Part shown: positions 9,321-11,125 of the stretch, piece by piece
How the letters are laid out: each line of letters begins with the position of its first letter
Position numbering within the stretch: position 1 is the stretch's first letter
Assembly (NCBI GenBank): GCA_000934665.2
Contig: KZ539084.1
Coordinates: 1 to 33,937, forward strand
Direction of reading: 5' to 3'
Length of the DNA stretch: 33,937 nt
Source of the DNA: Catajapyx aquilonaris
Taxonomy: Eukaryota
Translations under genes and position numbers: made by a program
Notes under the pieces: generated by a model
What the model saw: the letters and a program-made list of their open reading frames with translations, nothing else
Told to the model about the DNA's origin: nothing
Databases searched by the model: none

Positions 9321-9469
9321 TGTAGTGATAGGCCTTGGCAACGCCCGTGAGCGGCCCTCGAACAGGCCCTCTGAGTAACACACGTCCTGACTGTGAACTC
9401 TAAGTGTTTACTAAATGACAACAATGCCAGTTGACAACCTGATAGTCATGCCAACTGGCTAACAATACA
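9321..9469 (-). repeat. 3' LTR (149 bp)
   Basis: Direct repeat of 10975-11125, differing by one substitution and one 2-bp indel. Confidence 0.95.
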
Positions 9470-9481
9470 TCTCCCCCTTTT
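9470..9481 (-). promoter_or_regulatory. Polypurine tract
   Basis: AAAAGGGGGAGA directly precedes the TGT of the 3' LTR. Confidence 0.9.
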
Positions 9482-9490
9482 AGCGGGGCA

Positions 9491-10891
9491 TCACATAACA
9501 CATCTCCCCCTCTTTGGCGGCGGGCGACCCGTGGATCTAGGCTGCATCAGGGATGTCCTCTTCAGCACCTTCTTGATGACCACGTCCTTTTCGTCGACCT
9601 TCAGGCGGTCAGTGGTGTGGTCCAGGTGGTCCTCCAGGATGCAGCCGGACTGCTCCGTCGGGGGGGCGATGGCCTCCAACATGTACCTGCGGTAAGGGAC
9701 ACAGTGGCTGTCGCGTAGGTCCTCTGCTCTGGAGGTGTCGGCTGGTGCGACTTCCACGGCTGCTTCGGCTGGGGCGTCAGAGGGGGCAGCGTCCATGGGC
9801 ACCGATTGTCGGTCCCTGTTGCTGCATAGCACCGTGTCGCTCTGGTACTCTTCTGCTGATGACTTCTTCGCCACCTGGCTGCATCCTCCACGTCCGACAC
9901 TGCGCCTGGTCTGTCCCCCTCCGGAGACCTTGCCGGAGGACCTGAGGCTGCGGCGCTTACTCCGCTCCAGAACCTCTTGTAGCTCTGGATCCTGCTTGGA
10001 TGCCTGTTGGTGACTGGCCCCAACATTGGTCCCGGCGGTGGCTATCTTGTAGTTGCCCTTGGCGGTGGTCAACACACGGTCCTCGACGGAGTCGACGACT
10101 TCTCTAGCTTCCAAGCGCCCCAAAAATGTGATGGGCACCTGCGTCAGCTCTGTGAAGTCGGCTTCTTGGAATGACTGACAAACTGCCCCGTAGTGCCCTG
10201 CTGTCTTGAAACAGGCACACATCTCGGAAGCAGTATGCTTCTGGTTCTTATGACCACTTGAACCGCTATTCTTGCCAGCGGACCCTTTGGCGTGACTGGA
10301 AGAATGAACCCGGTCCTGTTCCAGCATCTCCTTACCTTGGAGAGTAGACTGCTGCTGCTTGACTGACAGCCTGGCCTGAGTGACGGCGCACTGTTCGGCC
10401 GCTGGCTTGCTGTCTAGCTTTGACGGTAGGGGTAGACTCGGCTCACCCCGCTGCTGTTGCTGCTTCTGCTTGGCGGACAGCCTGACCTGAGTGACGGCGC
10501 ACTGTTCGGCCGCTGGCTCCCTGTCTAGATTTGACGGTAGGGGTAGACTCGGCTCACCCCGTTGCTGCTGCTGCTGCTTGACGTCTTCAGACAGCCAGGC
10601 TTGCGTGACGTTCAACTCATGCGTTCGATTCTTCTTGACAAAGTGATTCTCGAACAACATCAACAGCAGGTCGTAGTCACTCATAGCAACCTCGTCCAGG
10701 TGGAAATTTATCAAGACTTCCTCCGCCTGAGGTCCCATACAGTATACTAAAGCATCGACTTGATAGGCCGCCGGCTGCTTGTCCACCTTGGACAGGGTCC
10801 TGTACCTTCGGAAGCACATTTTCCAAAGAGTCCATGCTTCTGGATGTTGGAAGTCGAGAGGTTCCGGAGGTAGAAATGGGCAGGATGCCAT
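9491..10891 (-). CDS. gag: Gag-like ORF (466 aa from MASCPFLPP) of the LTR element
   Basis: N-terminus PPEPLDFQHPEAWTLWKMCFRRY...QVDALVYCMGPQAEEVL is typical of Mag-like Gypsy gag. Degenerate knuckle CACFKTAGHYGAVC. No protease, RT, RNase H or integrase catalytic motifs seen. The ORF-track start at 11080 lies inside the LTR. Confidence 0.85.
   Translation of the reverse strand: MASCPFLPPEPLDFQHPEAWTLWKMCFRRYRTLSKVDKQPAAYQVDALVYCMGPQAEEVLINFHLDEVAMSDYDLLLMLFENHFVKKNRTHELNVTQAWLSEDVKQQQQQRGEPSLPLPSNLDREPAAEQCAVTQVRLSAKQKQQQQRGEPSLPLPSKLDSKPAAEQCAVTQARLSVKQQQSTLQGKEMLEQDRVHSSSHAKGSAGKNSGSSGHKNQKHTASEMCACFKTAGHYGAVCQSFQEADFTELTQVPITFLGRLEAREVVDSVEDRVLTTAKGNYKIATAGTNVGASHQQASKQDPELQEVLERSKRRSLRSSGKVSGGGQTRRSVGRGGCSQVAKKSSAEEYQSDTVLCSNRDRQSVPMDAAPSDAPAEAAVEVAPADTSRAEDLRDSHCVPYRRYMLEAIAPPTEQSGCILEDHLDHTTDRLKVDEKDVVIKKVLKRTSLMQPRSTGRPPPKRGRCVM
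10349..10609 (-). repeat. In-frame ~111-bp (37 aa) tandem repeat, ~2.3 copies
   Basis: VTQxxLSxKQQQQQRGEPSLPLPSxLDxxPAAEQCA repeated. Confidence 0.9.
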
Positions 10892-10957
10892 GTCCGCTGC
10901 AATAAGCGTCTCTGACCTCGGAACTTGAGTCTCCAACAATGGTAGGGGTAGAACGTC

Positions 10958-10974
10958 TCCCACCGCTGCCACCA
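10958..10974 (-). promoter_or_regulatory. Primer binding site complementary to tRNA-Leu 3' end
   Basis: TGGTGGCAGCGGTGGGA is the complement of ...TCCCACCGCTGCCA-CCA, the 3' end of animal tRNA-Leu(AAG/TAG) as recalled from known sequences. Confidence 0.85.
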
Positions 10975-11125
10975 TGTAGTGATAGGCCTTGGCAAGGCCC
11001 GTGAGCGGCCCTCGAACAGGCCCTCTGAGTAACACACGTCCTGACTTTGTGAACTCTAAGTGTTTACTAAATGACAACAATGCCAGTTGACAACCTGATA
11101 GTCATGCCAACTGGCTAACAATACA
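10975..11125 (-). repeat. 5' LTR (151 bp)
   Basis: TGT...ACA ends, immediately followed on the minus strand by the PBS. Confidence 0.95.

Follow-up and report, generated by a model that had tools for sequence, protein, structure and literature searches.

A pol-less long terminal repeat element of Ty3/Gypsy ancestry in Catajapyx aquilonaris, probably moved by a helper

A stretch of 33,937 nucleotides from the genome of Catajapyx aquilonaris (contig KZ539084.1, positions 1 to 33,937; hereafter the window) carries at positions 9321-11125, on the minus strand, a long terminal repeat (LTR) element of 1,805 bp with a single open reading frame (ORF) and no pol. Of the explanations considered, the best overall is that the element is a pol-less Gypsy derivative, mobilised by a helper, in which the N-terminal domain of Gag has been kept: we hold this with a confidence somewhat above even. 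Genome annotation should accordingly treat the locus as a transposable element rather than a host gene.

Structure of the element and its insertion site

The structural features that define an LTR retrotransposon – LTRs, a target-site duplication (TSD), a primer-binding site (PBS) and a polypurine tract (PPT) – are all present, in agreement with a preliminary description made from the letters of the sequence.

9316-9320, no strand: left copy of the TSD, GGAGT, the same pentamer standing at the other end
9321-9469, minus strand: 3' LTR (in element orientation), 149 nt, TG..CA ends
9470-9481, minus strand: PPT, AAAAGGGGGAGA, abutting the 3' LTR
9491-10891, minus strand: single ORF of 466 codons plus TGA (protein P0001), start 10891, end 9491
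10958-10974, minus strand: PBS, 17 nt, pairing with tRNA-Leu(AAG/TAG) at its 3' end, CCA included, by comparison with published sequences of tRNAs and tRNA-derived fragments
10975-11125, minus strand: 5' LTR (in element orientation), 151 nt, TG..CA ends
11126-11130, no strand: right copy of the TSD, GGAGT, the same pentamer standing at the other end

The two LTRs are distinguished by one substitution and one 2-nt indel. A 39-nt core of the LTR occurs exactly twice in the window (two matches were reached in 0 of 100 shuffles), and comparison of the element with the window by blastn gave no third copy of either the LTR or the interior. The plus strand at the PBS exactly matches the final 17 nt of an 18-nt 3' fragment of tRNA-Leu AAG/TAG, the tRNAs compared being mammalian and not those of the host; the fragment, CCA included, is given in PMC10591036, and a tRNA-Leu-AAG sequence is tabulated in PMC10359600. 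Everything required in cis has been retained: both LTRs, the tRNA-Leu PBS and the PPT.

A long palindromic, foldback-like repeat harbours the element in its left arm, which comprises 8504-8635, 9268-9320 and 11126 to ~11300; the right arm spans ~11310-11661 (the arms are 76-91% identical). The other arm (the reverse complement of 11380-11620) passes the target unbroken and with a single TGAGT: it is a paralogous empty site, and the boundaries of the element and the 5-bp duplication are thereby confirmed.

The interior is occupied by one stop-free frame, as previously described, which spans 1,401 of 1,505 bases (93%); the remaining five frames contain 14-21 stops per 501 codons each. The ATG at 10891 is taken as the real start because this is where the relatives start. 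A further ATG, in the same frame, lies across the junction of 5' LTR and PBS (10973-10975, minus strand); a start there would lengthen the protein by 28 residues, to 494 aa. Codon-position bias is evident in all four segments of the ORF – the GC content of third positions (GC3) is 0.61-0.76, against 0.32-0.50 at second positions (GC2) – and is strongest in the C-terminal tail (GC1 0.61, GC2 0.48, GC3 0.76, with T at third positions, T3, at 0.07). A second PPT-like run, followed by TGT, is found at 9500-9515 on the minus strand, 19 nt upstream of the true junction between PPT and LTR, where the final codons of the ORF are read from it. The run may be a PPT duplicate or a vestige of the loss of pol. 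These same codons were considered as a reverse transcriptase (RT) motif, a candidate rejected in favour of the PPT-like duplicate.

Gypsy ancestry and the decayed Gag-protease region

Searched exhaustively with phmmer, 1.84 billion representatives gave 1,037 matches to the ORF protein at E<=0.001 (best score 86 bits; none at 1e-30), the best stretches falling almost all within residues ~5-95, at 35-47% identity. Domain scans of 14 long matches found RT together with H2C2 and/or rve integrase domains in nine (seven of them with RNase H as well) and only part of the Ty3/Gypsy pol set in four, while P0003 gave a protease match only. Named matches come from firefly and pseudoscorpion, and one is labelled 'K02A2.6-like'. 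Among 49 aligned relatives, Pfam recognises Retrotrans_gag (PF03732) in 15, gag-asp_proteas in 13 and zf-CCHC in 5. A local hidden Markov model (HMM) of 32 relatives aligns with residues 6-90 at E 1e-32: this bears out the Gypsy gag N-terminus first proposed from the sequence, and shows that the Gag of the element is homologous to that of Gypsy polyproteins.

No trace of pol accompanies this Gag. When 150 relatives were compared with the window by tblastn, only the gag-PR (protease) part of the element was matched, with no pol fragment in any frame; RT, RNase H and integrase, already reported as missing, are absent from the element. Assignment to Ty3/Gypsy is drawn entirely from the relatives, the element itself being without pol, and by that assignment it would be a non-autonomous derivative of a metazoan Ty3/Gypsy element, from the arthropod group named 'K02A2.6-like' by NCBI. 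The only RT in the window, at 17962-18801 on the minus strand (Pfam RVT_1, E 6e-24; best PDB matches R2 and LINE-1 ORF2), is a fragment of the non-LTR retrotransposon type and not a Gypsy helper: the window is without a helper.

Comparison by BLASTP with the cleanest polyprotein (P0019, 1,294 aa) shows residues 1-349 of the ORF aligned colinearly with residues 1-370 of P0019, and the alignment of a second relative gives the same picture. In these alignments the ORF runs colinearly with the Gag-protease part of polyproteins from metazoan Ty3/Gypsy elements, with the following segments from N- to C-terminus.

10628-10891, minus strand: codons 1-88, conserved Gypsy Gag N-terminal helical domain (phmmer, HMM, AlphaFold)
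10349-10578, minus strand: Q-rich in-frame tandem duplication, 2.1 copies of a unit of 111 nt (37 codons), within the eroded C-terminal half of the capsid
10178-10219, minus strand: residues 225-238, what is left of the second zinc knuckle, CX1CX5HX4C (non-canonical; alignments)
9992-10132, minus strand: FLG linker and protease remnant, residues 254-300 (alignments)
9494-9871, minus strand: codons 341-466, tail with GC3 of 0.76, mostly predicted to be disordered, with no detectable homology

Conservation along these segments is uneven and shifts sharply near residue 88. The median identity to 32 relatives is 0.36 over residues 1-88, against 0.39 among the relatives themselves; over residues 89-222 it is 0.22 (0.41 among relatives) and over residues 263-340 it is 0.16 (0.28 among relatives). 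AlphaFold modelling, put forward earlier as a check on the N-terminal region, gave a pLDDT of 90 for residues 1-115. By the alignments residues 1-88 are intact, and the eroded or broken parts are the C-terminal half of the capsid, the zinc knuckles and the protease.

Residues ~89-222 occupy the position of the rest of the capsid in the relatives, with 40 of 156 family columns missing. Compared as a whole with the capsid region of the family, residues 96-222 give no significant score (305 of 500 shuffles reach it), and sub-stretches are marginal (reached by 11-30 of 1,000 shuffles). The Q-rich repeats noted at the outset lie here: between the units of the tandem duplication 9 of 111 nt have changed, with a synonymous effect in 3 cases and a non-synonymous one in 6. 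The relatives' first zinc knuckle has no counterpart in the alignment of the ORF. The family HMM gives residues 223-300 a score of 11.5 bits, a value reached by 0 of 500 shuffles, and alanine stands at the position of the catalytic aspartate in the protease remnant. Nowhere in the ORF is there a D[TS]G, a canonical CCHC or a YxDD. The statement that protease motifs are lacking therefore stands as far as D[TS]G and the canonical CCHC go, and needs amending where a degenerate knuckle, the FLG linker and a remnant of the protease site are recognisable.

Beyond residue ~300 homology is unsupported: the score of residues 266-466 is reached by 125 of 500 shuffles, and that of residues 380-466 against the family HMM by 28 of 500. 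An ESM Atlas search with residues 290-466 gave no usable match, and the last ~125-170 residues appear to match nothing in the searches made. In a MAFFT alignment residues ~390-466 fall opposite the relatives' linker between protease and RT; this identification was rejected, with 28 of 500 shuffles reaching the HMM score. The interior, initially portrayed as a gag start running into junk, is instead largely a decayed Gag-protease remnant, followed by a tail without homology. Nor does the ORF look like an intact Gag precursor of the TR-GAG type: the C-terminal half of the capsid and the knuckles are damaged, and there is no Pfam gag match in the ORF.

History of the element and rival explanations

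Divergence between the tandem units is 8.1% (9 of 111 nt), against 0.7% (1 of 149) between the LTRs, a difference that is significant (Fisher p = 0.0025), if based on small counts for both. The order of family motifs is the same in the two units (homology being statistically marginal, as above), and both are read as containing the junction of a capsid deletion. The sequence of events would then have been capsid deletion, duplication, long divergence, insertion at the present site and, finally, slight divergence of the LTRs. On this order the defects predate insertion: since a copy that lacks pol and has an inactive protease depends on a helper's proteins, it was very probably reverse-transcribed and integrated by the enzymes of a helper, with the helper's capsid probably being used as well. 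The original suggestion of a young element that moved in reduced form with a helper is upheld by this comparison, the element being fairly young.

A second question concerns selection on the frame. Here we lean, by a narrow measure, towards a lineage in which selection has maintained both an open frame and an intact N-terminal Gag domain. Residues 1-88 are conserved and the rest is eroded, and constraint within the lineage would therefore have been uneven. The frame of the N-terminal domain is also that of the knuckle and protease remnant ~140 codons further on, despite an insertion, a deletion and a duplication of 37 codons between them. Approximately 4% of random substitutions in the ORF create a stop; simulated sequences remained stop-free in 11% of cases after 4% substitutions, in 1.8% after 8% and in 0.1% after 15%, and the erosion of the capsid's C-terminal half, the knuckles and the protease points to more change than these levels. 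An earlier proposal of selection on a modified Gag is in keeping with the conserved residues, the retained frame, the lack of stops and the GC3 bias, and is supported in part, all four observations coming from one copy.

If the element is a helper-mobilised Gypsy derivative, its cycle would most likely proceed as follows. RNA driven by the LTR would be translated into the ORF protein, the Gag N-terminal domain of which would join the assembling particles of the helper; the joining protein would bring its own RNA along – packaging in cis being favoured – and the helper's RT and integrase would complete the cycle. Such a protein would act much like the gag-pol fusion protein of mouse IAP 1-delta-1 elements. 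Alternatively, translation to a point near the PPT may merely stabilise or protect the RNA. A more ambitious version sees in the element a metazoan counterpart of TR-GAG, a distinct and evolving lineage and not an accident of deletion, in which selection keeps the Gag N-terminal domain plus a fast-evolving, largely disordered tail as an adaptor that loads its own RNA into helper particles, or sabotages them: this we regard as unlikely.

A number of points weigh against the explanation that we favour. The element was picked because its frame is open. With only 9 differences between the tandem units, the ratio of non-synonymous to synonymous differences per site (pN/pS) comes to 0.66, a value indistinguishable from neutrality; the stop-free probability of 0.11 at 4% divergence is non-negligible. 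Gene conversion between the LTRs could make the insertion look too young, and uneven conservation could stem from recombination that placed a young gag 5' end on an old body. The lost or broken zinc knuckles would weaken direct RNA binding, and with it a role in packaging in cis. Pfam found 0 families in the ORF at E<=0.01 (one sub-threshold match, Cys_rich_VLP, E 0.25), and 222 of the 466 residues have a pLDDT below 50. Foldseek placed at E<=0.001 neither the model of the whole ORF against PDB (0 of 29 listed matches) nor the N-terminal model with pLDDT 90 against PDB (0 of 27) or BFVD (0 of 71). Close relatives of any length are also absent from protein searches: a word-indexed search gave none at E<=0.001 for the whole ORF among proteins of near length, nor for residues 1-100 among proteins of near length (12 candidates) or longer (9 candidates). 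This last absence is weak evidence, because transposon ORFs are often omitted from protein sets.

Other results of the structure and profile searches are of the same kind. Coat proteins of caulimovirids were considered as a structural match and set aside (E~5-6, not significant), and a profile-based search of PDB sequences gave 0 matches at E<=10. The ESM Atlas clusters nearest to residues 1-115 (0.87-0.93) consist of unnamed arthropod fragments, DUF7041 and Retrotrans_gag; we treat them as leads only.

Many of these points would be expected of a dead relic, that is, a one-off internally deleted Gypsy copy or a dying lineage, the frame of which is open because the copy is young and GC-rich, and the protein of which has no role. 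The single copy in the window, the lack of close relatives in protein searches, the pN/pS of the tandem units, the fraction of simulated sequences still open after 4% substitutions and the predicted disorder of the tail are all compatible with it; nevertheless, we consider it rather improbable. Erosion to an identity of 0.16-0.22 (relatives 0.28-0.41) goes far beyond 4% change, yet neither stop nor frameshift has appeared, the N-terminal domain is uneroded, the GC3 bias extends up to the last segment and the frame has been kept through net changes in length. The same domain might instead serve interference. A truncated Gag that co-assembles with helper Gag and poisons particles, as a brake on copy number or as a weapon (the model being Ty1 p22), would account for the retention of one Gag subdomain alongside damage to the parts for assembly and RNA binding, and particle function can be inhibited when a partial Gag binds Gag, according to PMC4599808 and PMC8458377. 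However, blocking its own helper would limit the spread of a non-autonomous element, and we think this reading distinctly improbable.

Two further alternatives attribute the pattern to rearrangement. In a recombinant mosaic the well-kept 5' end of gag would be a recent acquisition: an autonomous element packaged in the same particle would have donated it, through template switching, to a non-autonomous body already old and decayed, and uneven conservation would then not reflect selection. It is generally true of retroelements that RNAs packaged together recombine, and the sharp change in conservation near residue 88 fits; left unexplained are ~375 decayed codons that are stop-free, in frame and biased by codon position, and we rate the mosaic slightly below interference in probability. 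Least probable of all is deletion after insertion, in which the copy that arrived was autonomous and a genomic deletion then removed its pol. Inserted LTR elements commonly suffer internal deletions, but the gag-PR that remains is itself non-functional, with defects that appear older than the divergence of the LTRs, and both the PPT and its flank are intact.

Neighbouring features and related elements

The left arm of the palindrome carries a second insertion (8636-9267), absent from the right arm, which is a hairpin: its arms (8986-9102 and 9133-9249) are 97% complementary and separated by a 30-nt loop. It looks like a miniature inverted-repeat transposable element. Elsewhere in the window a short piece at 27063-27200 (plus strand) is similar to non-LTR RT. 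A tRNA-like sequence at 25484-25562 (plus strand; 49.8 bits against the Rfam tRNA model), to which ARAGORN could assign no amino acid and in which it reads a four-base anticodon loop, may represent a tRNA pseudogene or else the head of a short interspersed nuclear element of tRNA origin. An open frame with a MAM domain at 23710-24186 (plus strand; Pfam E 2.5e-8) is probably an exon of a host gene; the MAM domain and the arthropod relatives of the Gag fit an animal genome.

Internally deleted LTR elements mobilised in trans are a familiar kind, and the Catajapyx element belongs there. TR-GAG elements are LTR elements of plants that code for a Gag precursor (Chaparro et al. 2015, PMC4350172). 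As characterised there, they share with the Catajapyx element a length of <4 kb, LTRs, PBS, PPT, a 5-bp TSD, one ORF of Gag ancestry, the lack of pol and presumed mobilisation in trans; multiple conserved copies with different TSDs, and transcription, form part of the TR-GAG case, and the window holds one copy of the Catajapyx element. The Catajapyx ORF differs in being Gag-like only in its N-terminal ~88 residues, with a damaged capsid C-half and knuckles, a protease remnant and no Pfam gag match, and the relatives of the element are metazoan Gypsy. The 18 papers listed as using the term TR-GAG all concern plants, and literature searches for gag-only LTR elements of animals found no direct precedent in those words. 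A title of 1997, cited in PMC3286476, reportedly names a gag-only element of Culex (CM-gag).

The IAP 1-delta-1 provirus of the mouse, which belongs to the class II endogenous retroviruses and not to Gypsy, offers another analogy. According to PMC6466679, its fusion protein acts in cis to help retrotransposition, other IAPs are still needed, and activity is highest in the deleted form; like the Catajapyx element it is internally deleted and non-autonomous, with one long ORF from gag onward. Unlike the Catajapyx element, an IAP of this form carries a single 1.9-kb deletion and retains the rest of pol, as set out in the same text. In the Catajapyx element there is no RT, RNase H or integrase, and the frame passes from gag to a protease remnant and a tail without a supported match to pol.

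Other partnerships are alike in part. ETn/MusD, TRIM, LARD and BARE2-type elements use the proteins of a partner and keep LTR, PBS and PPT, according to PMC6466679 and PMC4350172. By those accounts ETn, TRIM and LARD have no coding capacity; the Catajapyx element has an ORF of 466 codons and is thus not a TRIM or LARD. BARE2 is described there as having lost Gag and kept pol, whereas the Catajapyx element is the reverse, with part of Gag kept and pol lost. Ty1 p22/p18 is, according to PMC4599808 and PMC8458377, a partial Gag encoded by a retroelement and able to act on full-length Gag, which for the Catajapyx protein is a possibility; the part kept here is the N-terminal one, and it is encoded by a separate, non-autonomous Gypsy element.

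Non-autonomous LTR elements with partial gag are well documented in plants (TR-GAG), and one mammalian case (IAP 1-delta-1) has a truncated Gag fusion that can act in cis. Coming from a single copy, the present element is a lead and not a demonstration. If the explanation is true, this animal Gypsy case, with its signs that one Gag subdomain and the open frame alone have been kept, would point to the minimal part of a protein that such a parasite needs, and would offer a test of cis-preference in Gypsy-type elements.

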